Positions 2,622 through 63,492 are shown, counted from the first letter of the stretch. The stretch: 64,000 nt of DNA from Squalus acanthias (GCA_030390025.1 CM059432.1:66776001-66840000); one strand, 5' to 3'. A program made the numbers and translations. Notes: a model not told the origin generated them from the letters alone.

Positions 2622-3234
2622 CAGGATGTCAAACATACGGCCCGCGATACTGTTTAATCTGGCCCACGGTGTCCTATGCTTAGCATTACCATGTGTTCCA
2701 AATTGTGACACGAATCTCCTGGGTGCTGGTTCTCAAGCCTGGGAGAATTGTAGCTTTTAATCTTTGCGGTGGAGCAGAGGCCCCTTCCACTCCGTGATAT
2801 CACCACCCCCCACCCCCCACCACACCCCGCACTTTTTTACATTCAAGGACCGCTACTTAGGCCGTTATAGAACTGGAGAAGCTAGTCGGATGCTCCACCG
2901 AGTTTTTAACACATTTTGCAGAAGTGTCCTAAAACAGGTGCAGGATACTTCTTTGCATATTTAAATTGATCCAATGCTGATTTCAGGCAGCCGCCATGGG
3001 TGCCTAAAACAGCGAGGTCTGAAATAGCGGCAGCCTTGCCGTCAATGCAGATTAGGTGCAGGACCTCATACCCAGAAATTGGTATATATTGAGCCTGTTT
3101 TCCACCCAAAAAACAGGTAAAACACATACCAATTTCTACCTCAGTGTGTCCAAATAACTTTTGCTGAATGTGGCCCACGCCAAGTGAAAGGATATCGGAT
3201 CAGGCCCACCATATAAATTCAGTTTGACATCCTA
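2622..3234. mobile_element. hAT-Charlie-like non-autonomous element
   Basis: TIR (C/T)AGGATGTCAAAC at both ends and repeated GGCCCAC/GGCCCGC subterminal motifs. No TSD recognised. Confidence 0.6.
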
Positions 3235-4121: not shown

Positions 4122-4543
4122 TGCGTTGTGCTCGGGTGACATTCTGGACTGTCTTGTGAGTGCGGCTGATGAATCTGGCATTGATGCATCTCCTGACAGC
4201 TTGAGCATACATGTCAAGCTTGGGGCAGCGACCCTCCGGAGGGGTCCAATTTGACTCTTTTTTCTTCGGTTGCTGCACTGCGAGTCCCTCTGTCTGCTGT
4301 TCTGGATCATTGATTGTCTCATTGGGTTTGTTGCTGACATCTTGGGATTTGTGGAAGAATTCCCGGAGCCTCATTCTCCTGATGAATTCCTCTGTGTCTG
4401 CCGCGAGACCGATGGGGTCCATTTTGGTGGTGGGGCAGAACTTGAGCCCTAGGGCGAGAACTTCGATTTCGTCTGGTTGAAGGGTGTGGTCGGACAAGTT
4501 GACAATTGACTTCCCTGTGGTTGCAACCGTGGTACCGGGGGAG
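4122..4543 (-). pseudogene. Inverted N-terminal segment of the Penelope ORF
   Basis: Minus-strand peptide NLSDHTLQPDEIEVLALGLKFCPT...RLREFF...VQNVTRAQR overlaps the plus-strand ORF start QNVTRAQRNAI. Confidence 0.9.
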
Positions 4544-4547
4544 GTTT

Positions 4548-6404
4548 CAGAATGTCACCCGAGCACAACGCAACGCCATCCACACTCTCAAGACCAACCG
4601 CAACATCGTCATCAAACCAGCGGACAAAGGAGGAGCCATCGTCATACAGAACAGAATGGGCTATTGCAAAGAAGCATACCGACAACTGGACAACCTGGAA
4701 CACGACAGACAGTTACCCGCAGATCCGACCAAAGAACACACCCGCCAACTCAATAGACTGATCAAGACCTTCGATCCAGACCTTCAAAGCATCCTACGCG
4801 CTCTCATCCCACGTACTCCCCGCGTGGGAGACTTCTACTGCCTCCCAAAGATACACAAAGCCAACACACCCGGACGTCCTATCGTATCAGGCAACGGAAC
4901 CCTGTGTGAGAACCTCTCTGGATACGTCGAGGGCATCCTGAAACCCATCGTACAGGGAACCCCCAGCTTCTGCCGCGACACCACAGACTTCTTACAGAAA
5001 CTCAGCACCCACGGACCAGTTGAACCAGGAACACTCCTCGCCACGATGGACGTATCGACACTCTACACCAGTATCCCCCACGATGACGGCATCGCTGCGA
5101 CAGCCTCAGTACTCAACACCAACAACAGCCAATCTCCAGACGCCATCCTACAACTCATCCGCTTCATCCTTGACCACAATGTCTTCACCTTCGACAACCA
5201 TTTTTTTACCCAAACACACGGAACAGCCATGGGGACCAAATTCGCACCCCAATACGCCAACATCTTCATGCACAAGTTCGAGCAAGACTTCTTCGCTGCA
5301 CAGGACCTCCAGCCAACGCTGTACACTAGATACATCGACGACATTTTCTTCTTTTGGACCCATGGCGAAGGATCACTGAAAAGACTACACGATAACATCA
5401 ACAAGTTCCATCCCACCATCAAACTCACCATGGACTACTCCTCAGAATCGGTTTCATTCCTGGACACACGAGTCTCCATCAAAGACGGACACCTCAGCAC
5501 TTCACTCTACCGCAAGCCCACGGACAACCTCACGATGCTCCACTTCTCCAGCTTCCACCCTAACCACGTTAAAGAAGCCATCCCCTATGGACAAGCCCTG
5601 CGAATACACAGGATCTGCTCAGACGAGGAGGAACGCGATGGACACCTACGGACGCAGAAAAACGCCCTCGTAAGAACGGGATATGACGCTCGACTCATCG
5701 ATCGACAGTTCCGACGGGCCACAGCGAAAAATCGCATAGACCTCCTCAGAAGGCAAACACGGGACACAACCAACAGGGTACCCTACGTCGTCCAGTACTT
5801 CCCCGGAGCGGAGAAACTACGCCATGTTCTTCGCAGCCTTCAACATGTCATCGATGACGACGAACACCTCGCTAAGGCCATCCCCACACCTCCACTACTT
5901 GCCTTCAAACAGTCGCCTAACCTCAGAAGTACCATCGTTCGCAGCAAATTACCCAGCTTTCAGGATAACAGCGACCACGACACCACACAACCCTGCCACG
6001 GCAACCTCTGCAAGACATGCCAGATCATCAACACAGATACCATCATCACACGTGAGGACACTACCCACCAGGTACATGGTACATACTCATGTGACTCGGC
6101 CAACGTTGTCTACCTCATACGTTGCAGGAAAGAATGCACCGCGGCATGGTACATCGGCGAGACCATGCAGACACTGAGACAACGTATGAATGGACACCGC
6201 GCAACAATCGCCAGGCAGGATTGTTACCTCCCAGTCGGGGAACACTTCAGCAGTCAAGGACATTCAGCCTCGGATCTGCGGGTAAGCGTTCTCCAAGGCG
6301 GCCTTAGAGACACACGACAATGCAAAATCATCGAGCAGAAACTGATAGCCAAGTTCCGCACTCATGAGGACGGCCTCAACCGGGATCTTGGGTTTATGTC
6401 ATGA
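4548..6404 (+). CDS. Penelope reverse transcriptase + GIY-YIG endonuclease; frame open but N-terminus detached by the inversion
   Basis: Motifs KPADKGG, LPKIHK, GRPIVS, MDVSTLYT, GTAMG, RYIDD, FLD, YRKPT; C-terminal NVVYLIRC...WYIGET...RMNGHR...GLNRD. ORF track 4506-6404; bases 4506-4547 derive from the inverted segment. Confidence 0.92.
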   Translation, partial: QNVTRAQRNAIHTLKTNRNIVIKPADKGGAIVIQNRMGYCKEAYRQLDNLEHDRQLPADPTKEHTRQLNRLIKTFDPDLQSILRALIPRTPRVGDFYCLPKIHKANTPGRPIVSGNGTLCENLSGYVEGILKPIVQGTPSFCRDTTDFLQKLSTHGPVEPGTLLATMDVSTLYTSIPHDDGIAATASVLNTNNSQSPDAILQLIRFILDHNVFTFDNHFFTQTHGTAMGTKFAPQYANIFMHKFEQDFFAAQDLQPTLYTRYIDDIFFFWTHGEGSLKRLHDNINKFHPTIKLTMDYSSESVSFLDTRVSIKDGHLSTSLYRKPTDNLTMLHFSSFHPNHVKEAIPYGQALRIHRICSDEEERDGHLRTQKNALVRTGYDARLIDRQFRRATAKNRIDLLRRQTRDTTNRVPYVVQYFPGAEKLRHVLRSLQHVIDDDEHLAKAIPTPPLLAFKQSPNLRSTIVRSKLPSFQDNSDHDTTQPCHGNLCKTCQIINTDTIITREDTTHQVHGTYSCDSANVVYLIRCRKECTAAWYIGETMQTLRQRMNGHRATIARQDCYLPVGEHFSSQGHSASDLRVSVLQGGLRDTRQCKIIEQKLIAKFRTHEDGLNRDLGFMS

Positions 6405-6732
6405 TACATGACATAGAGTCATCCAGACTCGAGTCGTCGTTGGCTTGTTCACAGATGTGATTCCCAGTAAAAAAGTAAAAATTTTAAAGTTTATCGTTTT
6501 CCATACCGACTGCAGCTTTTGACACATTAGACCCCCTGTAACCCCACCTCATTATCTCAGTTGTATCTTGCTATGTCTTTGATGTGGTGCCTTCCTGGCT
6601 GACCTGATTGTTTATCTGCCGAGGTGTGACAAAAGGCAGTCAGGAGGATTAAATGTAGTCGTCTGCCATTGTAAGTTACACATGCATTGTTCTCTATCTA
6701 TATATGCTTTGTCGATTTTGTATTCCTTTACT

Positions 6733-6770
6733 TCACCTGACGAAGGAGCAGCCGCTCCGAAAGCTTGTGA
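6733..6770 (+). ncRNA. Minimal type-I hammerhead ribozyme in the Penelope pLTR
   Basis: TCAC-CTGACGA-A-GGAGC-agcc-GCTCC-GAAA-GCTT-GTGA: helix I TCAC/GTGA, CUGANGA and GAAA cores, 5-bp helix II, palindromic AAGCTT in place of helix III. Confidence 0.88.
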
Positions 6771-6860
6771 TTTCAAATAAAACTGTTGGACTATAACCTG
6801 GTGTTGTGCGACTTCTCACTTTTGTCCACCCCAGTCCAACACCGGCATCTCCGCATCATG

Positions 6861-9471: not shown

Positions 9472-10378
9472 GGGGGAAAAATTCAGTTATTTGCACCTCC
9501 CGTTAGCGCCTTAAGAGGGCGCTAATGGGACGCAAAGCAACTAGCGCCCGGGCGCGGCGATGTTTGCGCCGCTCGCGAAATTAACTAGACATTTTGCGGC
9601 GGCGCTAAACACTACCGCCACGATCTCCTGTCCGGCGGATCGTGACGTCAGTCGAGTGCGCAACGCCCCGGTAGCGCCCCGGTAGCGCCCCGGAGTGGAT
9701 ATTGAGTGGCGCCCCCTGCCTTACCGCCTGCCGCTAGCAACGACAGGTTGAGGGAAGCGTTTTGCAGTCAGGAAGGGACAGGTGGAGCGCTATTTAAAGG
9801 TGACGGCTTCCTGCCTTTTTTCGTTGGTGGCATTTTCGAACCACGCATTCTGAGAGAGAGAGAGAGAGAGAAACCTCTGGAGAGATTCAATGCTGTGTGA
9901 AGGAGTTTTGGGTACTGAGCAGCACTTTGCAGGTTCATTTTGATTTGCCCTTCCTTGTATTGATTTAGAAGCGATTGTGGGGGCTGCACTCTGAGCTCTT
10001 TCCCTGGGCCTCTCCATTGTTCTTTCCAGCAGATTTGATGTACATGTCTCTCCAGGCCGAGATTCAGGGCTGCAATGAGCAGGATGTGGATGGAAAGCAA
10101 GATCAACCCTCCCCTTTAAGAACTGGCTGGCGCCATTGTGTCTGTGTTCCATTGCTGACTGACATCACATGAGCTTCGCCAGCGCTCTGAGTTAGCGCCT
10201 CGCTCCTTGGCCTTTGTGCCTTAAGACAGATGTGTAGCGCCTGATTTAGCGCTCCAATCACCTCCAGGGGCGATAAAAGTCAAGTTTGCAGTTGGAGGCG
10301 ATAATTAGCGCCAGGCGCCAATCTTAGCGCCCGGCCAATAATTGCGCCCCAAATGGGGCGATACTGAATTTCTCCCCC
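9472..10378 (+). mobile_element. GC-rich ~0.9-kb Harbinger MITE, family A copy 1 (strand = reference orientation for this family)
   Basis: TIRs GGGGGAAAAATTCAG and CTGAATTTCTCCCCC, TSD TTA (9469-71, 10379-81). Close homologues at 35365 and 46469. Confidence 0.93.
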
Positions 10379-15232: not shown

Positions 15233-16898
15233 TCACCTTTCAAAATTATTAATAATTGCTAAAGGGGCTCCTCTATACTTGACACAAATTCAGGAATCTT
15301 ACTCATTGAAGCCATAAGTACGCAAGGTTTTGCACCCCAGGAGCGTCCCTTACCTGCTCAGACAGTGCTTCCTGGGCATGTCAGAAGAGATAGTTGTCTT
15401 GTGGTTATGGTACTGAACTAGCAACCTAGAGATTGCGAGTTGGCAAGTTGTGAAATTAAATTCAATAAACCTGGTAACTTGTGACCTAGAACCAGTAAAA
15501 TAATCACAAAAGCTTCCGGATTGTCATAATAACCCACTGTTTCACAAACATCCTTCAGGGAAGGGGCCTGTCACCCCTATCTGATCTTGCTCCAGGTCTC
15601 ACACTATGGCCGCAATTTCGCCTACCGAGGCGGGCTCAGTGCGGCTGAGGTAGGTGACGGGTTGGGATCCCACCCCCGGCTCCATCCCGCTCTGTGAGAA
15701 GGATTTTCCATTGATTATGCTTGTTAAGCCCGCCCTGCAAGGTTCCCGGCCAATTAAAAGGAAGCGGGTCTGATGACGTCATTTGATGACACGTCATCAG
15801 CCAGTTTCCTTAAAGGGACCATGTCCACATTCATTTTGACAGTTGTGCTGTCAGTGTTCTGCAGCATTAAGGTGTTGCAAACACTGACAAGCACCGCAGA
15901 AAGGTGCACGGCTGCACCCAAACTCTCCCATGGGCACCCAGACTCTCCCACAGCACACAGGGAGGTTCTCTTCCCTTCCAATGGGCGGAAGAGACCTCCC
16001 TGGGACACCATGCAGCCTGGTTGCACATTGCACAGGAGGGCATAAGCAGGGATGTCATCAGGAGGACCAGGCTGCAATGGCGCAAACCCTTCAATGACCT
16101 CAGTAGATCACGAAACGTTACTGCAAAGCCACACTCAACCTCATCCTGCTGTGCGACTCATCACATTCCCATCACTCTGCCTTCCCTACCCTACTCCTGC
16201 ACATCCTTACTCACACCAACTTATCTTGCACCTCCACCCATCCCTCTCTATCTACATTATCACTTCCCCACCTCACTAGCCACCCCTCACACTCACCCTC
16301 ATCCTTGTCCAATCATACCAACTAACAACACACAAGGGTAGGCACTTGGGTGTTTTCGCCAATGTTCATGTAAAGTTTCTGTTGATGTGTTGCCAAACAT
16401 TGAAAACTTTATTTTCCACACTTTGCCTTCTTGGACAGATTTGTGTGCACCTTTGGAAGTGTCTTCGTGAGTTGCAGTGAATGGTGAGACAAAACGGTAC
16501 CCCCCCGCAATTTGATGAGTGTGAAAGGAATGGTTTGGGCATTGCAGGGATGTTTTATGGTGTTGGTGTGGGGTGGTGCCAACATGGTGCCTCATGTGAC
16601 AGCCAGGGTATACAGCATAAAGTGCAGTAAATCTGACCTCCTGCCTCAGCTTCACAGACGAGGTCTAGGCACAGCGGGAAACCGGTGGGCAATCTGTCAA
16701 ATCCAAAAAGCTGTGAAAAAACCATTGAGCGTCAAGTGAAGTAAATCTGGCCATGGTACGGCCATCCCTGTCCTCCCGGGCAGCAATGTTGTCGGGTGCT
16801 GATGCCCTGTGTCCTGTGCAGCATCAGGTGATTGCGGAGCAGGTTAGTGTTCTTGTTGGTGATGCTGGTGTGCCTAGTATCGTGTCAGTGTGATACTC

Positions 16899-17310
16899 GG
16901 GGCAGCGCCAGGTGGGAGCGGCAGTCGGAGCGGGGTAGCGCCAGGCGGGAGTGGCAGTCGGAGCGGGGCAGCTCCAGGCGGGAGTGGCAGTCGGAGCAGG
17001 GTAGCGCCGGGTGGGAGCGGCAGTCGGAGCGGGGCAGCGCCAGGTGGGAGCGGCAGTCGGAGCGGGGTAGCGCCAGGCGGGAGTGGCAGTCGGAGCGGGG
17101 CAGCGCCAGGCGGGAGTGGCAGTCGGAGCGGGGCAGCGCCAGGCGGGAGTGGCAGTCGGAGCGGGGCAGCGCCAGGCGGGAGCGGCAGTCGGAGCGGGGT
17201 AGCGCCGGGTGGGAGTGGCAGTCGGAGCGGGGTAGCGCCGGCTGGAGTGGCAGTCGGAGCGGGGTAGCGCTGGGTGGGAGTGGCAGTCAGAGCGGGGCAG
17301 TGCCAGGCGG
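16899..17310 (+). repeat. 33-bp GC-rich minisatellite, about 12 copies
   Basis: Unit GGGCAGCGCCAGGYGGGAGYGGCAGTCGGAGCG. The 11-aa periodicity is visible in all overlapping ORFs. Confidence 0.95.
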
Positions 17311-18270
17311 ATGGCGGCGGATGAGCGTGAGTTCTGTTCACCGGCACTGACGAGTTCTGGGCGGGCAGTGCGGGCTCTGTGCAGCCAACGGGTTCGGGCA
17401 CCTGTCCTCCTGGAGTCCTGTTAGGCAGTCGGTGGTGGTAGGGTGGGAGAGAGAGACAGAGGTTTGTTAGTGTGTGTGCATTTTAATTTAATTTAATTTT
17501 AGCGCGTGCATTTCTTAAAAAGCTGCATTTAATATAACTTTAGTGTATGTATCTCTGCAAAAAGCTGCATTTTAACATAATATAATTTTAATATAATTTT
17601 TACGTAATATAATATAATGTAAAGTGGGGAGGGGAGCTGAGAAGGTGGGGGTGTGAGGGAGAGTGGACCCGAGGGAGTGAGGGAGGGGGTTAGTGGGAGT
17701 ATGTATGTGTGTGTGTGTTTGCTAAGCCCATCCAACAGAACCTGGGGGGCGATTTTCCCAGCCCCGAGGAGGCGGGTTTGGAGGCGGGACAGTTGGCAAA
17801 ATGGCAAAAACTGAGGGCGGGTTCGGGACCCGCCTCCAACACACCTCCGCGCAATGTTGCCGGAGGCGGGTTTGATGGGTGCAATTCGGTCCCGCCTCCA
17901 TCAGTCGGGAGAGGTAGTTAAGACCCTTAAATAGTAGTTAAGGGCCTCTATAATCCTATTTTGACAGGCCTTCGTTATTTTACCACATTTTCAGCGTGTT
18001 GCACGACCCTCCTAAACCACGCCAGCTAATCCTGGCGGGTTGACCAGTGGGTGGCCTCCTCACAGCTGCAGCTCCACCATTAAAATGGAGCTTTCATCAG
18101 GGAGCAGTTGCAAGTGGCAGAACTTTTGTTCCAAAGGTCTTTCAGCACTTTTAGCAGGCCTACCGAAGTTGGAGGTGCTGCAGTTTCTATCTCTGAACTG
18201 TGGGACCTCTTTGGAAGACCCTCTCCTGCTTGGACTGAGCGCTTCTCCAACGGAGGTATCTGCCAGCAGC

Positions 18271-19510
18271 ATGGAAACCATTTATTTCCTTTCACCATGG
18301 ACCTCAGATTCAGTTGAGGAGCAGCCACGGTAGCAGCAGAACCAGGCAACTCAACAGCAACAGCAGCAGGAGCCCCCAACCTTTTGCTCACCCACCTGAT
18401 GCTGCACAGGGCAGAAGGCGCCAGCGCATGGAAGCACGTCGCCGCAGGAGATACCCCCCTCAGGGTTTACAGACAGAGGATGAGCTACCTCAACATGACT
18501 GAGTAGCAGTGCCAAAGGAGGCTGAGACTTTCGCAAGAGGTTGTCGGAGACATCTGCGCACTGCTGCACCAACACCTGGAGCCCAGAGGAGCGGGTGGAC
18601 ACCCTTACCAGTGGCAGTCAAAGTCACCACTGCACTCAACTTTTTTGCCTCAGGCTCCTTCCAGGGATCAGCAGCAGACATCAGCGGCATCTCACAGTTG
18701 GCCGCCTACAGTTGCATCACGGAGGTTAGCAATGCCCTTTTCGCAAAGGCCCACAATTACATCCACTTCTCAAGGGATCAAGCAAGTTAACTGCGCGTTT
18801 GGTTGGCTTTGCAAATATGGCAGGCTTGCCAATGGTGCAGGGCGTCATAGACTGCACACATGTGGCTCTTAGGGCGCCCCATCACAACCCAGCTATATTT
18901 GTCAACCACAAGGGCTTCCACTCCCTCAACGTACAGCTGGTGTGTAACCACAAGAAGGAGTTCTTGCATGTTTGCGCCAAGTTCTGTGGTAGTTGCCATG
19001 ACTCTTTCATCCTGCGGAACTCTCGTGTTCCTCCGCTCTTCAATCCGCCAACCAACTTAACGGATGGCTCCTTGGTGACAAGGGCTACTCCCGGAAGAAG
19101 TGGCTAATGACGCCGATCAGGAGGCCAGCTAACGAGGCTGAAGAGTGCTACAATGCCAGCCATATTTCGACCAGGTCCATCACCGAGCAAACCATTGGCT
19201 TGCTGAAGATACGATTCCGATGCCTTGACAGATCAGGTGGAGCCCTGCAGTATTCAGCAGCCAGGGTCTCCAGAATGGTCGTGGTCTGCTGTGCACTGCA
19301 CAACATGGCACCGCATCATGGTTTGCAGCTTCCTGATGAGCAAGTGGCTCAGTTCATAGCCTCCTCAGATGAGGATGAGGATGAGGAGGAGGAGGAGCAG
19401 GAGCAGGAGGAGGACCGAGCGACGGCGTATCGACCAGCAGCAGCGGCAGCACGCGAGCACATGGCTGCCCGTGATGCAAGGGATGCACTCATCCTGGCCA
19501 GATTTGCATT
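18271..19510 (+). pseudogene. HARBI1-like DDE (DDE_Tnp_4) transposase, disrupted
   Basis: Motifs [72 protein letters not shown], then an acidic tail. Stops at 18331, 18504, 18788 plus frameshifts. Confidence 0.93.
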
Positions 19511-21310
19511 GGTTGCCCATTTTGGCACATGTCCTTGGCTCCATCTTAACACATAATAGACAGTGGACATGACTCTCTGGCCTCCTTTCACTCTGGCCAC
19601 CAACATGACCACGCAAGTGTCGCGGAGCCCGCAATGTGGAGCTGCCTAAGGCGAAATAACAGATGCCATGACGCCAACAGTTTGCCATCACCTCATTTTT
19701 ATACATTCAAACAGGGATGGCATTTCGTCAATAAACAGAAACAAGCACCCAAGTGCCTACCCCTGTGACTAATGGTGTTTTATTTTTCTCTTACGCGTGC
19801 TCCTACATGGTGCTCCCCCTGTGGCTTCAGCAGAAGTGGAGGCCCTTGCTCACTTTCATGCTGCTCCTGCTTCGACACCTTTGGCGGGCGTCCTCTGGGT
19901 TTATGAGCCTGTGAGGGCTCGCCAAAGGTCTGCTCATCCTGCGGCAGTGCAGGGGCTCAGACGCCCATCTCAGTTGGGTGCGGACTCTGGTGGGGCTCTG
20001 ACCAAGGGCAGTGGCATGCAAGTGTGAGCGCTTGGAGAGGAGCCCCCACTTCCTTGTTCTCTGCCACCAACTTCCCTCTCATGGGTCAGGTCCACCTCAG
20101 CGCTTGCAAGTGGCTTGAGAGCACCTTGTTTCACATCAGGGGTCCATGGGGACCCGTATCTGCACTGGCAGCCCTACTCAAAAGGACTTCCATGAAGCTC
20201 TGGTTTCTCTGCTCAATAGCTGCCCATCACTCCTCCATTCTATTCTGAACAATCACCATGCTTTCCTGACTCTGGCGACTTATTTCCTCCATGGCCATAG
20301 CCAGCCTTTCCACGGAGGTTGCCATCCTTTCTGTGGTGCTGCGTATATGTGCCATTGCCTCCCCAACAGCACTGCTCATATTAGAGTTGGACTCCTCCAT
20401 TCTTTCCACACTCGCAGTGACCCTGGAGACAAGACCTGTCAGAGACTCCTGCACCTGCTCCTGGAGTTCCAGCACCGCTCTCCTTCTGGATGGACCCAGA
20501 GGCACGGGGTCCACATGCAGCGGAACAGAGCTCTGAGAGTCCTGCGCCCTCTGACGAGGACTCTCCATTGCTGTCGCTGTCTCCACCACCTGCTGATGCT
20601 CATCTGTGAGATGTGATACACCAGGTGACAACACTAATCTATGTCCCGAAGGTCCCACCGAGGTGTGTGTATCTGCGCTGGTGCTGGGTGCGCTTACATC
20701 TGCTGACGCTTCGTCCTCAGAGGTTGCAGGCTCCCCTGAGGAGTCTTGCTGCTCAGCCTCTTCCTTGTCGACAGTGGTGTGGGGCTTTGTGGATGGTCCT
20801 GTGGGGGAGTAAAGGCATGGGTTTGACACTTGACGGAAGTGTGGCATGCACATGTAATAGTGCAGATGCTCAAGTGGCATTCTAATAATGTACACCAGCA
20901 GCCATTTCAGTCACTCAAGCAGTGTAAATGAGAGAGAGGTAAAACTATTCTGTCACCAGCTTGCACTGCCTCGTCCGTCTGTCCGAGCCCCACTTCCACC
21001 TCCACCTCTGCGCCAGCGATGTCCTGGGCCACCTCTTCAGCCTGGGTGAGATGGTCTAGGGAAGGTGGCCCTCCTCCTGTCTTCATCCTTTCCCTTCTAT
21101 TGTGGGCTCTCTTTTCCTGCAGTGAGGGAGACAAGTGGAGTTGGAGTGAGAATGATGGAGTGAGTGTAGAGAGTCCAGAGCATAGATGCTAGAAGGAGAC
21201 AAAGATGGAGTGAGGTTCCATGTCCAAGGGCCCTCCCTGTGTGTTGTTAGTCATTGTCATTGCATAACATTGAAAGGGAGTGTGAGGGCAGCATAGTCAA
21301 ATAGTCAAGT

Positions 21311-21530
21311 GAAATAACAACAGAAAATGCTGGAAAACTCAGCAGGCCAGGCAGCATCCGTGGAGAGAGAAAGAGAGTTAACGTTTCAGGTCGATGACCT
21401 TTCGTCAGAACTGTGAAGAGCCGGAAACCAAATAGATTTAAGGCCAGAGTAAAGCTGGGAAAAGGGGGAGGGGATAAAAGAACAAAGGGGGAGATGAAGA
21501 GACATTAAGAGACATTAAGAGATATGCAAG
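21311..21530 (-). mobile_element. Penelope-like pLTR fragment in intron 1 of the Myb gene
   Basis: Revcomp ...ctgacgaaaggtcatcgacctgaaacgttaactctctttctctctccacggatgctgcctggcctgctgag..., a characteristic pLTR sequence. Confidence 0.8.
21376..21412 (-). ncRNA. Minimal type-I hammerhead ribozyme
   Basis: Revcomp AGTT-CTGACGA-A-AGGTC-atc-GACCT-GAAA-CGTT-AACT. Cores, helices I and II, and the AACGTT palindrome are intact. Confidence 0.88.
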
Positions 21531-22354
21531 GCTAGAGGTGGTGTTAATGATTGGGTTCATAGAGTGAGAGGGATGGTGAAGGGTGCAAGGGGTGTAAGGG
21601 CAAAGTGGGATATGTAGGAGGAGGTTGACAATGCAGAGTGCTGGTGATGAGAGGAGAAGGGGAGCAGAAGGAGGGTGAAGCTGAAGGTATACTCACTTTG
21701 CCTGATCTTACAAGGTCATTGAACTTTTTACGGCACTGCACCCATGTTCTGCTGCACACTGATCTGGAGGTGATGTCCCTTGCCAGCTGTACCCATACAG
21801 CCTTGGTTTCTTTGGGAGGCCTCTATCTCCCAGATGAGGGGAAGAGCACCTCCCTGCTGGCTCTCACTCCCTCAACCAACATTCTCAGCGCCTCATCTGA
21901 GAACCTCGGGGAGGCCCTTGCTTTGGAGTTGGCCATTGTTGAAGGAGATAACAGCTTGGAGGTGGTGCAGCATCGACCAAAAACCAGTGGAATGAGCCAA
22001 GGCAGCAAGCAGCCCTTAAATGAAGCTGGATAAGTGACGTCAGCAGAGGCGAGTTTCAGTCCCAAAACACTAATCGGCCCAGGGGAACCCACACCTCTGA
22101 AATCAACTGGCCAATTCGGGGAAAATGGCAAATTTTTCCCACCTCTCAGTGGAGGCGGGTTTGGAACCCACCCAAACCGAAACCCGCCTCCAACCCGCCT
22201 CCATTGGGAAAATCGCGCCCCTGGTCTCCAATTGTCCTGGGTTTCCTTGCCATTGGACCAAGACCTTGCTCTGTCAAGTTTGTGTGGTAGCTGGTGTGCA
22301 ACGGCCACCCCATGTTAAAAGAATTCACGCACAGACATCTTCCACCCCTTTAAA

Positions 22355-29799: not shown

Positions 29800-30547
29800 G
29801 GCCCGGATTTTACGGGGCCTATGATGGACTATGCACAGCGTACGCCGTCGTAAGTGGCCCGCAAGTTCCAAGTTTCCGCATGCGCTGCACATGCGCGAAA
29901 ACCCGGAACTTGCGATCTGTCAAGTTTCTCCTTGACAGATTGCGCGCATCCGCTGTAAATTCACTTTTGCTGGCGCAGAGTTGAGCTATTTGCCCAACTA
30001 CTACCCAGCGAATACCCATCAAACACTTACACCTGGTAAAAGCAGGCGTAAGGCCTTCTTTTACCAGCGTAAGGGTTAAAATAAAAGTTAAAATAATTTT
30101 TTTTAAATGATTTATACATTCACTTACATTTAAAATTAGTTTAGGTTATTTTTGTTCCATTTAAAAATGTTTACATTTACTTTTCAAAAAAATTTATTTT
30201 TATTTTAAATTAATTTTGAACCTGTGATTATTTATTTTTATTTCAGTGTTGTGAAGTTGTATTTATTAGGTGATTCCTATTATGCTTATGGGGATTTCGT
30301 ACATAAATGGAATCCCCATAAGCATAATAGGAATCCCCCTTTATCATTGGTTGGCCTGGCACACGTGATCCCAGGGACGCTTGCGAACCGCTGCACCCCT
30401 CGGATGCGTGGGCCTTTATGCAGACGTACCCCCGCAGGTCCAGGACCGGAACAGTCTGAAGCTCCGGAGGCTGCAGGTAAGTACGGAGTTTTCTTGCGGT
30501 TTAGAGGCATAGGCGGGCGGCAAGCCTCCGACCGCAATTTCCAGGCC
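29800..30547. mobile_element. Harbinger-type MITE with AT-rich core and internal hairpin
   Basis: Ends GGCCCGGATTTTACGG and revcomp GGCCTGGAAATTGCGG. Flanks ATT/AAT. Confidence 0.75.
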
Positions 30548-33053: not shown

Positions 33054-33814
33054 GGGGTAAAAATTGAGTCGCGCCCCATTTGGGGCGCTAACCTCGCCGG
33101 GGCGCGACTTTTAGCACCCCGAAAAAATTAGCGGCCCCGCGCCGGAACTTCAGTGGTTGCGCCCCAAGAGGGAAGTGGGGCGCAACTGGAAGCAGCCCGC
33201 ATCCCTCTTGGGGCGCTGCGAGTGAATATCCTGGCGCTACGTGCCGCAGCGCCACGTGCTGCGGCACGTCGCGCCGTGGTATTGCAGGCCTTCCTCCCCT
33301 TCTTAAAGGGGAGGGACCCTGCGCAGCGCGAACCGGGGTCCAGCTGGGCCCCCAGGGATCGGGAGTGCCGGCAAAAGAGCCCGGCACTCAAGAGAAGTGC
33401 CGGGCTCATGGAGCGCAGCCGGCACTTCACGGTGGGGGGGCTTCACGGGGGCCGGGGGCAGGTGCTGGCAGGCGGCCAGCAACAAAAATGGCCGCCTGCC
33501 ACCTCCGCTTTAAATATCGTCGCCCCGGCCGCACGTACGCCTCCCTGAACCCGTCGGACATAGCGTCTGGCGGTAAATCAGGGGGCGCGACTGAAGATCA
33601 CGGCCGGGGCGCGAGCGGGGTGCTGCGCACGGCGATGACGTCATCGCCGGCGGCGCAGCGCCACAGGACGCTACCGGCTGCCGCCGCCGCTAACCTCCCA
33701 CTAAATTTTTCGGGAGGCGTGGGCGGCGCTGCGCTCGGGCGTTAGCTGCTTTACGCCCCATTAGCGCCCTCTTAAGGCGCTAACGGGAGGCGCAAGCAGC
33801 TGAATTTTTCCCCC
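33054..33814 (-). mobile_element. GC-rich Harbinger MITE, family A-related but with a different interior, in opposite orientation
   Basis: Ends GGGGTAAAAATTGAG and CTGAATTTTTCCCCC, TSD TTA (33051-53, 33815-17). Revcomp of the right end matches the left end of the 9472 element. Confidence 0.92.
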
Positions 33815-35364: not shown

Positions 35365-36244
35365 GGGGGAGAAATTCGGTATCGCCCCATTTGGGGCACA
35401 ATTATCGGCCGGGCACAAAGTTTAGCGCCTAGCGCTAATTATCGCCTCCGACTGCAAACTTAGCTTCTATCGCCCCTGGAGGTGATTGGAGCGCTAAATC
35501 AGGTGCTACACACATCTCTTAAGGCGCTAACGCCGAGGAGCGAGGTGCTACCTCAGAGCGCTGGCGAAGCTCATGTGATGTCAGTCAGCAATGGAACATA
35601 GACAAACTGGCGCCGGCCAGTTCTTAAAGAGAAGGGTCGATCTTGCTCTCCATCCACACCCGGCTCATTGCAGCCTTGAATCTCGGCTTGGAGAGACCGG
35701 TACATCAAATCTGCCGGAAAGAACAATGGAGAGACCCAGGGAAAGAGCTCAGAGTGCAGCCCCCAAAGTCTCTTCTAAATCGATGCAAGGAAGGTCAAAT
35801 CAAACTGAACCTGAAAAGTGCTGCTCAGTACCCAAAACTCCTTCACACAGCGTTGAATCTCTCCAGAAGTCTCTCTCTCTTTCTCTCAGAATGCGTGGTG
35901 CAAAAATGTCGCTGACAAAAAAAGGCAGGAAGCTGTCGCCTTTAAACAGCGCACCCCCAGTCCCTTCCCGACTGCAAAACGCTCCCCTCAACCTGTCGTT
36001 GCTAGCGGCAGGTGGTAAAGCAGGGGGCGCCACTCAATATCCGGTCCGGGGCGCTACTGGGGCGTTGCACGCTCGACTGACGTCACGATCTGCGGGCGCC
36101 GGAGATCGTAGCGGTAGTGTTTAGCGCCACCGCAACATGTCTGGTCAATTTCACGAGCGGCGCAAACATCGCCATGTCCGGGCGCTAGTTGCTTTGCGCC
36201 CCATTAGCGCCCTCTTAGGCGCAAAGCAACTGAATTTTTCCCCC
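35365..36244 (-). mobile_element. Harbinger MITE family A copy 2 (inverted)
   Basis: Revcomp homologue of 9472-10378, TSD ATA. The empty site is visible in the CR1 copy at ~12620. Confidence 0.93.
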
Positions 36245-46095: not shown

Positions 46096-49000
46096 GGCTG
46101 TGAAATTGGAGCATTTAGCGCCAGTCATTAAGGCTGGTTTGGAAGTAAAAATGGTGGCCGCCTCACTTCTGCCCACTTCCGGCATGGAAGGCGGCCGCCG
46201 CCATTTTGGACAGGCCGGCAGCGCTGCCATTGCCTGCGATCACTTCACATATTCAAATTATCCAGATCGTGACGTCAATCGGCGTGCAACGCTGCATTGA
46301 CGCACAATCTGGGATTTTCGATCTCGCTGCTCTTAATAACACCCTCTCCAAACCAGGCACAGAAGAACATGTGTGCAGCAGTACAACGGAGCTGCTGCCA
46401 GCACTTCTTAAAGGGATACACACAACTTTCAGGTAAGTTTAGATTTTTGCTTTTGAACTGGTTTCTTTGGGGGAAAAATTCAGTTGGTTGCGCCTCCCGT
46501 TAGCGCCTTAAGTGAGCGCTAATGGGGCGCAAAGCATCTAGCGCCCGGGCGCGGCGATGTTTGCGCCGCTCGCAAAATTAAGTAGACATTTTGCGGCAGC
46601 GCTAAACACTGCCGCCACGATCTCCTGCGCCGGCAGATCATGACGTCAGTCGAGTGCGCAATGCCCCGGTATCGCCCCGGAGCGGATATTGAGTGGCGCC
46701 CCCTGCGTTACCGCCTGCCACTAGCAACGACAGGTTGAGGGGAGCGTTTTGCAGTCAGGAAGGGACTGGGGGAGCGCTATTTAAAGGCGACCGCTTCCTG
46801 CCTTTTATTGTTGGTGACATTTTAGAACCACGCATTCTGAGAGAGAGAGAGAGAGCGAGAGGGAGAGACTTCTGGAGAGATTCAACGCTGTGTGAAGGAA
46901 TTTTGGGTACTGAGCAGCACTTTGCAGGTTCATTTTGATTTGCCCTTCCTTGTATCGATTTAGAAGAGACTGTGGGGGCTGCACTCTGAGCTCTTTCCCT
47001 GGTACTCTCCATTGTTTTTTCCAGCAGATTTGATGTGAAGGTCTCTCCAGGCCGAGATTCAAGGCTGCAATGAGCAGGATGTGGATGGAAAGCAATATCA
47101 ACCCTCCCCTTTAAGAACTGGCCCGCGCCATTGTGTGTGTGTTCCATTGCTGACTGACATCACATGAGCTTCGCCAGCGCTCTGAGGTAGCGCCTCGCTC
47201 CTCGGCCTTTGCGCCTTAAGACAGGTGTGAAGCGCCTGATTTAGCGCTCCAATCACCTCCAGGGGCGATAAAAGTCAAGTTTGCAGTCGGTGGCGATAAT
47301 TAGCGCCAGGCGCTAATCTTTGCGCCCGGCCGATAATTGCACCCCAAATGGGGCGACACTGAATTTCTCCCCCTTTAAGTTTTATTGGAGTAGTGGCTTG
47401 GTACAATACATTTAAAAAGTTGTTAAAGTGTGCAGTGAGTGCAGTGAGTGCTGCTGGATGTTTACAAGGCTTTGGCTCTTAAAGGAAGGCCTCTGAGAAC
47501 ACCACTTGCTCCCAGTCCTGGGGGCTCTAGTTGCAGCCCCTCTTAGACTGCAGCATGACAGGGAGATGAAGCAGAGGCAGCATAGGGAAAAAGCTGCTCG
47601 CAGATGGAGGAGGAGGAGGAAGAGGAAGAAGCAGAAGATGAGGAAGCAGAAGGGGAAAAAGCAGAAGAGAAGGAAGCAGAAGAGGAGGAAGCAGAAGGAA
47701 GGAAGCAACCCAAACAGCCACTTTCTGGCCGGGATATCCGGGAATGAATCATCCGCCTGCAGTACCAGTGAACACAACCCCAATTCCCCTTTCAACATTT
47801 GTCCCACACCTTACCTTCCCTCTGTTACTGACCATCACAGCATCCTCTTGGCCATAATGCTGAAATAAAAACCACCACAAAGCAAACTTTCCAATCCAAC
47901 TTTATCCATATATGCATCCAATATTACATCAAAAAATTAACTAGTCACCCTTGTGCATTCCCTTAGTGAGTGTCTTTCATGTGCCTTTGCCTATCCTACT
48001 GATGTTACGCAGTGCTACCCCAATGGCTGCAGTATGGCTGGTGGAAGGCTGCAGACATTCAGTGGGGGTCACTGCAGGTGGCCTTGCAGGACGACCTCGA
48101 GGAGCTGATGGCTGGGAGTGTGAAATCGAGTAATGGTGCTTCATCTTCTTCTTCAGTCTCCTCTCCCTCTTCTTGGTCAACCACTGGCTGGGCAGCCTGG
48201 AGTTCTTGGGTGTCTGAAATGAGGAAGGCACGAGGGTAGGGTTGTGGTGAGGGGAGTCAGGTAAAGCAAGAGGTGCATGCTTACACCATGTGCAGCTTGT
48301 ACATCAGAAGACATTGTGGGATGAGGGGGAAGTGGGATGTGAGAAGGAGGATAACGTATGAAGATATCGGCATCTTGTATTCTTTCAGCCCTGCCACTGG
48401 CCTGGCCAAGGGCTCAGCCATGCCCCTGCCAAGAATGGCCAGCACCATCTCTTCCAAGGGGGTGAGGTAAAGCTAGGAATGTGAGGTGTGCCTCAGGTTT
48501 GGTACAGATTGTTGATAGGTGATTGATAGGGGGGATCGTGCATTGAGTAGTGTGTGAGGCTAGTGGTGGAGTTGGTAGGAGACAGCTTTTAAAGATGCAT
48601 TCACTAATCTTGACCACTTGTCTGACGTCATGAAACTTCTTTGGGCACTGGAGCCAGGGCCTGGGGGCAAAACTGTTGGCAGTGACCACCTCGGCGATCT
48701 GGTCCCACATCCTTCTTTCTGGAGGACCTCCTGGCCCCCTGTGGGTAGAGCGCCTCTCTTCCAGTGTTGACCCCCTGCACAAAGCTCGAGTGATGCATCC
48801 GAGACCCTAGGTAACCTTTCCGCAGGCGAATGATTCCATCCTGGATATCCCAGCCAGAAAGGGACTGTTTGGGTTGCATCCTTCCTTCTGCGTCTGCCTC
48901 TTCTGCATCTTCCTCTTCTGCGTCTTCCTCTTTCCTCTGTGAGCGGATGCTGTAAATCTGAAATAAAAGCATAAAATGCTGGAAATACTCAGTAGGTCAA

Positions 49001-49526
49001 GCAGCATCTCGACCTGAAACATGAACTCTGTTTCTCTCTCCACGGATGCTGCCTGACCTGCTGAGTATTTCCAACATTTTCTGTCTTCTCAGAGGCCTTC
49101 CTTTACCATCCGAGGCCTTGCAAGTGTCTAGCAGCACTCTCTGCACACTTAAAAACTTTTAACATATATTGCACCAACTTCAATAAAAAATTTAAAAATC
49201 CAGTCCAAAAGCTTAAATGCAAACTTACCTAAAAGATGAATGTGTTCCTTTGAGAGGTGCTGACAGCATTTCTGTCAGTCTGCTGAATGCTGCGTTTTCA
49301 TAGCGAGCTTAGGACCCAGCGTTGAGCTCAGTGCTAAGGTCGAAGTGCACTGAGGTGACGTTAAGTCAGCGTGCGTCACCCTCCCTTCATTGACATGTCC
49401 AGAGCCAGCCCTGCTATCAAAATGGTGGCCAACGGTCCCACACCAGAGAAGGGCGCGAGAGTGGTGGTCGCCATTTTTCGCCAGGACAGTGGTGCAAATG
49501 GGTGGTGCTAAGTGGCCCAATTTCTA
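46096..49526. mobile_element. Chimeric Harbinger derivative (Myb remnant on minus, two transposase-side ends)
   Basis: Left end GGCTGTGAAATTGG. ~47600-48700 is a revcomp homologue of ~61500-62530, and ~48815-49526 is a direct homologue of ~62410-63161. Right TIR is clipped. Confidence 0.75.
46469..47373 (+). mobile_element. Harbinger MITE family A copy 3
   Basis: Colinear with 9472-10378, TSD TTT (46466-68, 47374-76). Confidence 0.93.
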
Positions 49527-53529: not shown

Positions 53530-54478
53530 TAGAATCATAGAATGATACAACACAGAAGGAGGCCATTCGGCCCATCATGTGCCAGCTCTTTTGTAGAGCT
53601 ATCCAATTAATCCTACTCCCCTGCTCTTTCCCCATAGACCTGTAAATTTTATCCTTTCAAGTATTTATCCAATTTCCTTTTGAAAGATACTATTGAATCT
53701 GCTTTCACCAACCCTTCAGGCAGTGCATTCCAGATCACAATAACTCACTGTGTAAAAAAATGTTTACTCATGTTGCCCTGGTTCTTTTGCCAATCACATT
53801 AAATCTGTGTACTCTGGTTATTGACCCTTCTGCCAATGGAGACAGTGTCTCCTTATTTACTCTATCAAATCTTCTCTTAACCTTCTTTGTTCTAAGGAGA
53901 ACAACCTCAACTTCTCCCGCTCTCCACATAACTAAAGTCTTTCATACCTGGTACCATCCGGTAATTTTCTTCTGCAAACTCTTTAAGGACTTGGCATCCT
54001 TCCTAAAGTGTGATGTGCTGAATTGAACACAATACTCTAGCTGAGGTCTAACCAGTGTTTTATAAAGGTTTAGTATAACTTCCTTGCTTTTCTACTCAAT
54101 GCCTCTTATTAATAAACCAAGCTCCTGTAGGCTTTTTAAACAGCCTCTCAACTTGTCCTGCCACCTTCAAAGATTTGTGTACATACACACCCAGGTCTCT
54201 CTGTTCCTGCACCCCATTTAAAATTGTACCCTTTAGTTTATATTACCTCTCCTCATTCTTCCTGCCAAAATGCATCACTTCACACTTCCCTGCGTTAAAT
54301 TTCATCTGCCATGTGTCTGCCCATGTCCTCCTGAAGTCTGTTACTATCCTCCTCATTGTTTACTACATTTCCGAGTTTCATGTCATTTGCAAACTTCGAA
54401 ATGATGTCCTGTATACCCAAGTCCAGGTCCTTAATATATATCAAAAAGACCAGTGGTCCTAATACCCACCTCTGGGGA
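53530..54478 (-). mobile_element. CR1 3' fragment with internal deletions
   Basis: Antisense CR1 tail (agaatcatagaat) and antisense RT C-terminal sequence. Confidence 0.8.
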
Positions 54479-54736
54479 ATTCAAAGAATTCAATCAAGTT
54501 TGCCATTGTTCTGTCCACATGCATATTTTGTTCAACTCACTGTAAGTCACTGTATGTTAAATGCTTTAAGACATTTCTGAGAAAGATGATAAAACTTTGT
54601 ATAGTGGTGTCCCCCTGAGGTGGGTATTAGGACCACTGCTCTTTTTGATATATATTAAGGTCCTGGACTTGGGTATACAGGACATCATTTCAAAGTTTGC
54701 AGATGACATGAAACTCGGAAATGTGGTAAACAATGT

Positions 54737-60957: not shown

Positions 60958-63165
60958 GGCCTAGAAATTCGTGACTGCTACAAAAGCTGCCAGTGCCATC
61001 GCGGCTGGGTGTTAATGTCCGCCAAAAATGGTGGTGCTGGCAGGACCAAAAAATTGGCAGTGGGGACTAAGTAACATTAGCCCAGTGCTTAACTCTCTGT
61101 GCAACACCATCCTGGTGGCGTTCGTCCGGCAGGAGGCCCTAATGTAGCTTGGCCGATGTGTCGGTGCAGCTAGAACGGCCTCTCTGAAAGCAAGGCTGTC
61201 ATTTCAGAAAGCATTGTCAGTTTCTTAAAGAGGCAATGGCTTCTGAAATGAAAAAAATAAAAATGATGTAAAAATTTGCAGTTTTCAGCCCTTACAGCTC
61301 AACTGCCTTCTGCAAAAAAAAAATTAACATTTAAAAGAATTCCCAAATGGGAGTCTTTAGCTCTTAAAGCTGAATTCCCTTCCACGCCTAAAAAAAAATA
61401 GGAAAATGCTTCATAACTAACAGAAATGGCAGAGCAAGCCAGGAGAGGTTCTCTACCCACAAGGACCAGGAGGCCCTCCAGAAAGAACAATGTGGGACCA
61501 CATCACCGAGGCCGTCACTGCAAGCAGTGTTGCCCCCAGCACCTGGCTCCAGTGCCCGAAGAGGCTTCATGGCCTCTGACCACTGGTCAAGGTCAGTGAA
61601 TGCATCTTTAAAAGCCATCTCCTACCAGCTGCATCACTAGCCTCACACACTGCTCAATGCATGACTCCCGCCCCACCAATCTGTACCAAATACAAAGCCT
61701 ACACCTCCTATTCCTAGCTTCACCTCAGCCCCTTGGAGGAGCCGGAGCTGGCCATTCTTGGCAGTGGCATGGATGAGCCCTTGGCCCAGGGCTGGGCTGA
61801 AAGGATACAAGATGCTGGTATTCTCATATGTTATCCTCCTTCTGGTATGCACCTCTTGCTTTCCCGCCCTCTCCTCACCACAACTCCTCCCTTGTGCCTT
61901 CCTCATTTCACACACCCAAGAAATGCAGCCTGCCCAGCCAGTGGTTGAACAAGAAGAGAGAGAGGAGAGAGAAGAAGAAGAAGAAGAAGAAGAAGAAGAA
62001 GAAGAAGAAGAAGAAGAAGAAGAAGAAGAAACACTGTCACTCGATTTCACACACCCAGCCACCAGCTCCTCAAGGTCGACCAGCAGGGCCATTTGCAGCG
62101 TAGCCCACTGAAAGTCAGCAGCCTTCCACCAGCCATGCTGCAGCCACTGGGGTAGCACTGCGTGACATCAGTACGATAGGCAAAGGCACACACAAGACAG
62201 TCACTAAGGGAATGCGTAAGGGTGATGAGTTGATTTCTTGATGTCATATTGGATAGATAGATGTATAAAGTTGGATTGGAAAGTTTGCTTTGTGGTGACT
62301 TTTATTTCAGCATTGTGGCCAAGAGGATGCTGTGATGATCAGTAACAGAGGGAAGGGAACGTTTGGGACGAATGTTGAAAGGGGAATTCGGGTTGTAGTC
62401 ACTGGTACCGCAGGCGGATGATTCCATCCCAGATATCCCAGCCAGAAAGGTTGAATCCTTCCTTCTGCTTCATCCTCTTCTGCATCTTCCTCTTCTGCGT
62501 CTTGCTCTTCTGCGTCTTGCTCTTCCCTCTGCGAGCAGATGCTGTAAATCTGATATAAAAGCATAAAATGCTGGAAATACTCAGCAGGTCAGGCAGCATC
62601 TCAACCTGAGACGTGAACTCTGTTTCTCTCTCCACGGTTGCTGCCTGACCTGCTGAGTATTTCCAGCATTTTCTGTCTTCTCAAAGGCCTTCCTTTACCA
62701 TCCGTGGCCTTGCAAGTGTCTAGCAGCACTCCCTGTACTCCCTACTTTAGTTTAAACATGTATTGCAGCAAGCCACTACTACAATAAAATTAAAAAAAAT
62801 CCTGTCCAAAAGCTTAAATGTAAACTTACCTGAAAGATGTGTGTGTCCCTTTCAGAGATGCTGACAGCGTCTCTGTCAGTCTGATGAATGCTGTGTTTTC
62901 ATAGTGAGCTTAGGGCCCAGTGCTGAACTCAACGCTAAGGTCGAAGTACGCTGAGGTGATGTTAAGTCGCCGTTGCACGCTGACTGACGTCGCCATTTCT
63001 TCATTTACATTTCCAGGGCCAGCATTGCTATCGGCAGCGCTAAGGCCCTTACCAAAATGGCGGCCGCTGAGTCCCGCGCCGAGAAGGGTGCTAGAGTGGC
63101 GGCCGCCATTTTTCAACAGGATTGCGGCGGTTACTTGTGGTGGTAAGTGGCCCAATTTCTAGGCC
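60958..63165. mobile_element. Non-autonomous Harbinger derivative with Myb remnants (+) and a transposase C-terminal remnant (-)
   Basis: Perfect 12-bp TIR GGCCTAGAAATT. ATGGCAGAGCAAGCC at ~61426 and a decayed QCRKRF-type segment. TSD not matched (TTT/CTG). Confidence 0.8.
61971..62030 (+). repeat. (GAA)20 microsatellite
   Basis: 60 nt of uninterrupted GAA inside the Myb remnant. Confidence 0.95.
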
Positions 63166-63176
63166 CTGATCTTGTC

Positions 63177-63492
63177 TTCCGGCTGAGACGTTAAATCGAG
63201 GCCCCATCTGCCCTCTCAGGTGGACATTAAAATTCCATGGCACTATTTCGAAGAAGAGCATAGAAGTTCTCCCGGCATCCTAGCCAACATTTATCCCTCA
63301 ACCAACAGCACCAAAACAGATTATCTGATCTCATTGCTGTTTGTGAGACCATGCTGTGTGCAAATTGGCTGCTGCATTTCCTACATTACAACAGTGACTA
63401 CATTTCTAAAGGGTAATTTGGTTGTAAAGTGCTTTGGGATGTCCTGAGGTCATGAAAGGCGCTTTATGAATGTGAGTCTTTCTTTTCTTTTT
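63177..63492 (+). mobile_element. DeuSINE-like SINE, 5'-truncated
   Basis: Core and tail homologous to ~54890-55173. Confidence 0.8.

Follow-up and report, generated by a model that had tools for sequence, protein, structure and literature searches.

Does a DNA transposon that carries a hairpin made from another transposable element spread that hairpin as a silencing cassette, or is the hairpin a passenger? The locus studied here lies in a 64,000-nucleotide stretch of the Squalus acanthias genome (GCA_030390025.1 CM059432.1:66776001-66840000), hereafter the window, in whose coordinates all positions are given. The original prediction placed there a Harbinger subfamily that had captured a Penelope pLTR fold-back, thereby disseminating a dsRNA-forming cassette and serving as a potential source of anti-Penelope small RNAs. 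Overall, we found that the hairpin is real and that its earlier description was accurate. Its origin is likely the passive nesting of a typical fold-back of a Penelope-like element (PLE), accompanied by a target deletion, in a non-autonomous Harbinger-like element, followed by co-amplification of the two.

Anatomy of the hairpin and of the PLE insert

The arms of the first copy of the hairpin (in host copy 1) are reverse-complementary at 33 of 36 positions, exactly as predicted, and those of the second (in host copy 2) are paired at 35 of 36; a mismatch at the base of the stem (48972/49081 in copy 1) is common to both. Both copies folded far better than dinucleotide shuffles on both strands (z = -9.9 to -12.5, with 0 of 200 shuffles as good). 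The free repeat at 21300-21445 gave z values of +1.0 and -0.5 against its shuffles, that is, no fold-back. The alignment of copies 1 and 2 was gapless across the insert and into the host on either side, taking in the inner and both outer junctions, which bears out the claim that the same insert with the same junctions recurs at 62565-62672. An Rfam scan returned five matches at E<=5, none of them near its own gathering score and no hammerhead among them; the best microRNA match was mir-1288 at 62571-62666, with 29 bits against a gathering score of 70. The parts of the insert and its free relative are as follows.

48946-49084, plus one ambiguous base at 49085: PLE insert of copy 1, 139 bp, including an unpaired tail of about 23 nt
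48946-49008, minus strand: inverted, 5'-truncated PLE terminal repeat, a 63-nt 3' end with 86% identity to 21310-21358; contains the left arm, 48973-49008
48946-48968, minus strand: extra 3' tail of the minus-strand piece, about 23 nt
49009-49084, plus strand: main 5'-truncated PLE copy, a 76-nt 3' end with 92% identity to 21394-21320 over 76 nt; contains the right arm, 49045-49080
62538-62676: PLE insert of copy 2, delimited by alignment to copy 1; arms 62565-62600 and 62637-62672
21310-21420, minus strand: free PLE repeat of the same kind, in the Myb-side portion of a different Harbinger; it has no fold-back, and its minimal hammerhead (core 21408) is intact

As aligned to the free copy, the insert is two 5'-truncated 3' ends of one PLE repeat placed back to back, with an extra tail on one side. 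The two pieces meet at their 5' ends and point their 3' ends away from each other; the stem is simply the stretch in which they overlap. The predicted likeness of the arms to the pLTR at about 21323-21358 was confirmed, at 86-88% over 50 nt and 91-92% over 76 nt when the match is extended to 21310-21394. The loop had also been read as the 3' half of a hammerhead, and this holds: the main piece begins within helix II, the 5' half of the core is missing from the insert, and only a decayed 3' half is kept, the insert of copy 2 having lost the GAAA box as well. At 21408 on the minus strand, the free copy keeps a complete minimal hammerhead with a bulged base before helix II and a two-base palindrome, both of which are described for PLE hammerheads in the available text of PMC4209133; in this copy the repeat resembles the PLE family repeats with a minimal hammerhead treated there. 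A hammerhead descriptor gave four hits in the window, against a mean of 0.5 and a maximum of three in 20 base shuffles, and two of the four hits lie in LINE-like repeats. Animal retrozymes have been linked to pLTRs; what is accessible of that work (10.64898/2026.07.22.740005) has no bearing on fold-backs.

The 64-kb window holds no reverse transcriptase (RT) frame linked to this pLTR family, so the PLE identity of the insert rests on the ribozyme motif and the insertion geometry. The Penelope origin that had been claimed for it is supported. The RT-bearing element at 4122-6860 has a different terminal repeat, with no match in blastn. This long PLE has a 633-codon open RT frame (Pfam RVT_1) with what we take, by eye, to be a GIY-YIG-like C-terminus, a hammerhead at 6737, and a 5' inversion with a 25-bp overlap (4122-4146 / 4548-4572). 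Other fold-back structures in the window are a larger one at 54354-54735, presumably LINE-derived, with 124-bp arms that are 95% complementary around a 134-nt spacer, and two small hairpins with 25-28-bp arms (30269-30338 and 3074-3137). There is also a 33-bp tandem array at 16832-17326.

The Harbinger-like host, the insertion site and the spread of the insert

Four copies of the host family in the window bear on the history of the insert.

46096-48820, plus strand: copy 0, an uninserted sister, with a nested 0.9-kb terminal-inverted-repeat (TIR) element at 46469-47373
48820-49526, minus strand: copy 1, an insert-bearing left-end fragment, 79.6% identical over 758 columns to 62408-63161
60958-63165, minus strand: copy 2, a complete 2.2-kb non-autonomous element with 12-bp TIRs and a Myb-like remnant; the transposase core is missing
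from 3589: copy 3, an uninserted relative that keeps part of the stretch replaced by the insert

In copies 0, 1 and 2, a basic N-terminal remnant is joined directly to an acidic C-terminal tail. This shared loss of the transposase core indicates that the host was already non-autonomous. No DDE domain was found in these three copies; the DDE_Tnp_4 match of the window (E 1e-18) sits in another element, at 18730-19553, and BLASTP gave no alignment between the acidic remnant of the host and the DDE frame at 19002-19553. A Myb_DNA-bind_5 match in copy 0 (48573-48740, minus strand; E 7e-4) scored 19.9 bits, below the cutoff of 21.7, and the matching 42 amino acids of copy 2 gave no hit to this model. 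The 3-bp flanks of copy 2 differ (TTT / CTG), giving no target-site duplication; neither end of copy 1 is intact, its TIR having lost the final 4 nt. By eye, the outer flanks of copy 2 fit an A-N-N-Y / R-N-N-T context, as do those of three of four neighbouring TIR elements. Because of the mismatched flanks and the lack of a DDE domain, we name the host Harbinger-like rather than a proven member. Of the Harbinger assignment originally made, the short TIRs stand, the Myb-like remnant scores below cutoff, and the 3-bp duplication (copy 2) and the DDE domain (copies 0-2) are absent; membership in PIF/Harbinger is probable.

The host is comparable to zebrafish Harbinger3_DR and 3N_DR and to rice mPing, as far as the available text of PMC2836001 describes them, in its short TIRs and in its remnants of two convergent genes, including a Myb/SANT-like piece. 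Non-autonomous PIF/Harbinger elements as presented there resemble neighbours in the window, which have like TIRs and 3-bp duplications, whereas the host differs in the unmatched flanks of copy 2, in the lack of a DDE domain in copies 0-2 and in its retroelement passenger. These neighbours are TIR elements of 0.8-0.9 kb, at 9472-10378 (duplication TTA), 33054-33814 (TTA), 35365-36244 (ATA) and 46469-47373 (TTT), of which those at 9472 and 33054 occupy the same site in two copies of a LINE-like repeat. The stretch at 46096-49526 is itself a composite of copy 0 (plus strand) and copy 1 (minus strand), with their left ends inward. The two are fused at 48820, where the transposase remnant of copy 1 abuts Myb-side sequence of copy 0; the composite possibly arose by deletion between two convergent copies, or by alternative transposition.

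Alignment to the uninserted sister showed that the insert replaced 95 bp of host, corresponding to 47500-47594 of copy 0. This stretch, kept whole in copy 0 and partly in copy 3, contains an AG resembling an acceptor, and a transposase-like frame has its first codons there; the AG is present in both uninserted copies and was lost with the deletion. The insert lies about 440 nt from the element end, in agreement with the few hundred bases first given.

We then considered how the insert came to be present more than once. With copy 0 for comparison, derived or diagnostic sites group copies 1 and 2 together in each of the five regions (sites at which copies 1 and 2 agree, against the two alternatives: 42:10:10, 30:4:7, 6:5:7, 9:3:0 and 3:1:1; the AT-rich intron is uninformative). 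Beyond the window, four coded runs from four studies (organism labels A, D, A and F) were aligned to 62380-63200 at 80% likeness, and pieces bridging a junction under a 31-letter rule were counted by hand among the longest 32 of 76,044. Among these 32, five bridge the left junction, seven the inner and seven the right, and the bridging contigs occur under three organism labels; the window copies are thus not the only two, as a purely local duplication would have it. At least three contigs (run X1, piece 1; run X10, pieces 9 and 10) cross all three junctions with 0-1 gaps. They differ from copy 2 at 41/238, 36/242 and 40/246 positions (15-17%), in alignments at 80% likeness that come without letters and may be partly non-homologous, and on the same three spans copies 1 and 2 differ at 20, 17 and 17 positions. 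One X1 contig displays the letters of the left junction itself, in a form distinct from both window copies. The sequence of the arms appears to lie overwhelmingly outside the Harbinger-like host: 62676 is the point at which 962 contigs of run X1 depart from the stretch, with PLE tail and not host as their continuation. Moreover, among the 15 joints listed of 373, nine connect the left arm to other points of the main PLE copy, as would be expected of further fold-backs of the same PLE repeat with different truncation points. Exact-pattern scans gave no match in metagenome contigs (junction and arm) or viral contigs (arm), where vertebrate DNA is not expected.

Two other histories have to be set against a single inherited insertion. 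Copies 0, 1 and 2 lie within 17 kb, and copies 1 and 2 are more alike in the insert and its near flanks (18/292 differences) than distally (43/323; p=0.003), as would fit a single insertion that was duplicated locally, or transferred by gene conversion, just one time between neighbours separated by 13.6 kb. However, copies 1 and 2 cease to be homologous at the TIR, both are set apart from copy 0 by the shared sites, and the more distant copies in X1 and X10, with bridging pieces under three labels, speak against a local event, which we consider very unlikely. The closer likeness around the insert belongs to a gradient that is also seen against copy 0, with divergence falling from about 43% close to the left end to about 8% close to the transposase tail, suggesting that the host copies are mosaic. 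Gene conversion of the insert alone, to which this gradient had pointed, is unnecessary since the gradient holds against copy 0 too. As for repeated independent PLE insertions at a hot spot in the host family, the unrelated full-length PLE at 4122-6860 replaces most of the transposase side of copy 3, with a breakpoint no more than about 3 nt away from where host sequence resumes after the studied insert, and one X1 contig joins host letters to the PLE tail at the left junction unlike either window copy, one base off. Yet independent fold-backs vary in their inner junction, while copies 1 and 2 share all three junctions as well as derived bases, and the three contigs that span the whole insert do so almost without gaps; recurrent insertion is therefore extremely improbable in our judgement. 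The insertion very likely predates at least some amplification of the host, because diverged insert-bearing copies in other runs are not merely a local duplication. To this extent, the claim that the insertion came before amplification stands.

Pairing, predicted splice sites and the silencing reading

If the hairpin were kept for its fold, its pairing should have been preserved beyond neutral expectation. Between copies 1 and 2, the arms differ at 4/72 non-CpG sites, the unpaired insert at 2/56 (p=0.70) and the near flank at 12/164 (p=0.78). All four arm differences break Watson-Crick pairs and none is compensated; two of them give G-U on the minus strand and one on the plus strand, as from transitions. 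At non-CpG sites the arms are 5.6% diverged, against 13.3% for the distal 5' part of the host; the gradient against copy 0 marks this difference as regional, not arm-specific. The neutrality test compares two copies only, with a power of 0.18 for a halved rate, up to 0.42 for a quarter rate and 0.85 for full constraint. We thus saw no sign of pairing preservation in these copies, and the hairpin appears to decay.

Two predicted splice sites flank the hairpin on the minus strand.

49221-49231, minus strand: 5' splice-donor consensus (predicted), intron start 49228; the same motif is in copies 0, 2 and 3
48959-48980, minus strand: PLE-derived 3' splice-acceptor-like site (predicted), a pyrimidine run and CAG, 14 nt beyond the stem

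The inward-facing donor had been predicted at about 49227, and its GT indeed starts at 49228, 144 nt before the insert. The motif is a feature of the whole host family, and uninserted relatives carry it as well, at about 46433 and 3936. Among the AGs that follow the donor in copy 1, the PLE-derived one scores highest for pyrimidines (12/15); in copy 2, where the predicted donor and PLE-derived acceptor lie at 62829 and 62551, an AG near 62779, at a distance of about 50 nt from the donor, scores equally. If the donor is used, the two predicted sites would place the whole hairpin inside a 270-nt intron in copy 1.

The claim of a captured dsRNA cassette with an anti-Penelope role supposes that a Harbinger subfamily spreads a transcribed hairpin, which is diced into anti-Penelope small RNAs and kept by selection. 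The stem is near-perfect over 36 bp and lies downstream of the donor of the host family. Inverted Penelope copies in transgenic Drosophila gave siRNAs matching the inverted regions, according to the available text of PMC3681739. Pieces from runs guessed to be RNA also bridge the junctions (X17, pieces 18 and 19; X18, pieces 25, 26 and 29), but these contigs are strandless and possibly DNA, so that they attest presence and not transcription; the run search listed no RNA holder, and four runs were guessed as RNA at shares of 0.09-0.10. Against this, every arm change is uncompensated, the mismatch at the stem base is present in both copies, the arms are no more conserved than the near flanks, and the great majority of occurrences of their sequence are not in this host, fold-backs with different inner junctions among them. 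Likewise, the same Drosophila report, in the part available, has the siRNAs failing to silence Penelope efficiently, and the hairpin of maize Mu killer measures about 4 kb (PMC3440606, as excerpted). Since the fold-back is in addition a described PLE form, we hold selected silencing to be highly improbable, and the word capture is not supported.

A related possibility is that the PLE tail was the useful part, providing a 3' splice site to substitute for the host acceptor lost in the deletion; the hairpin would then lie at the end of a 270-nt intron. The deletion did take out an acceptor-like AG that copies 0 and 3 retain, the PLE-derived AG does have the best pyrimidine tract in copy 1, and the tail differs between copies 1 and 2 at just 1 of 26 sites. 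Nevertheless, the acceptor-like site is built into the antisense strand of the PLE tail, so selection is not needed to account for it, an equally scored AG exists in copy 2, the donor is crossed unspliced by listed pieces 20, 21, 30 and 31 in both runs guessed as RNA, and the downstream frames are decayed. A donor-to-acceptor joint was absent among the 15 joints listed of 373, in contigs that show presence and are uninformative on splicing. We give this reading very little credence. Equally doubtful is a combination of the two, in which the intronic PLE hairpin, with an acceptor from its own antisense tail, would be released as a tailed-mirtron-like or Drosha substrate from a germ-line Harbinger promoter, give rise to small RNAs that target a highly abundant PLE family at its most conserved end, and be kept across several species.

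Known hairpin systems help to place the structure. Like Mu killer (PMC3440606) and the inverted Penelope of Drosophila (PMC3681739), to the extent that the available portions describe them, it is an inverted transposon repeat downstream of a possible promoter; it differs from Mu killer in its short stem, in being borne by a second transposon and in being known from sequence alone. Self-folding vertebrate repeats, including a palindromic Harbinger of Xenopus and a Penelope of lizard, are heavy ADAR targets in the accessible part of PMC5625713. The present hairpin is likewise a self-folding vertebrate repeat that needs no inverted neighbour, but its palindrome is that of a PLE carried as a passenger by a Harbinger-like element, and it is documented as DNA sequence only.

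Origin and meaning of the nested insert

Passive nesting with co-amplification brings these observations together. A non-autonomous Harbinger-like family had already lost its transposase core, as copies 0-2 show, and one member gained the 139-bp PLE insert in place of about 95 bp of host. The fold-back would have formed at integration: the PLE protein would have cut and primed both strands, starting at two sites near the 3' end of its RNA, and the short cDNAs would have been joined while the target between the cuts was lost. The host, mobilised in trans, may then have taken the insert to several loci, as the junctions shared by diverged copies suggest, and the insert now occurs under at least three organism labels. 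The hairpin itself would have no selected role and be decaying. Any transcript running through it would contain an intronic dsRNA like those of many other PLE fold-backs, and this would more probably be edited by ADAR or removed by splicing than act as a dedicated silencer.

This geometry is not unusual for a PLE, since it matches a described insertion form. PLE insertions can have an inverted, 5'-truncated copy at the 5' end and a 30-40-bp tail at one end only (PMC8557442, available text), and in assays with a purified PLE protein both strands were cut and extended, while reverse transcription started at two sites between which the tail lies (PMC11167929, available text). The insert shares with such complex insertions of endonuclease-positive PLEs (PMC8557442, PMC11167929; as far as these texts go) the back-to-back 5'-truncated fragments, the outward 3' ends and the one-end tail. 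It differs in being very short (139 bp), in an extra tail of about 23 nt rather than 30-40, in its 95-bp target deletion, in its multiplication by a DNA-transposon host and in the lack of a linked RT frame in the window. The 64 kb contain two more PLE insertions inside Harbinger-like elements, at 4122-6860 and 21310-21540. The latter, the third such nesting, is the free PLE end with the intact minimal hammerhead, embedded in a long Harbinger (DDE_Tnp_4 at 18730-19553), on its Myb side. A search by title and abstract start found no paper on a Harbinger subfamily with a PLE insert; subscription journals and Repbase are mostly outside that search.

If small RNAs from the cassette silenced the PLE family, the finding would matter far more, as a case in which a transposon spreads silencing across element classes; the present evidence gives no hint of this. 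Instead, the insert marks a Harbinger-like subfamily common to several species, and offers a clean, dated example of nesting. Read against the uninserted sister, it documents, to the base, how a PLE integrated, with outward 3' ends, a one-sided tail and a 95-bp deletion, a record that fits the two-strand priming seen in vitro.
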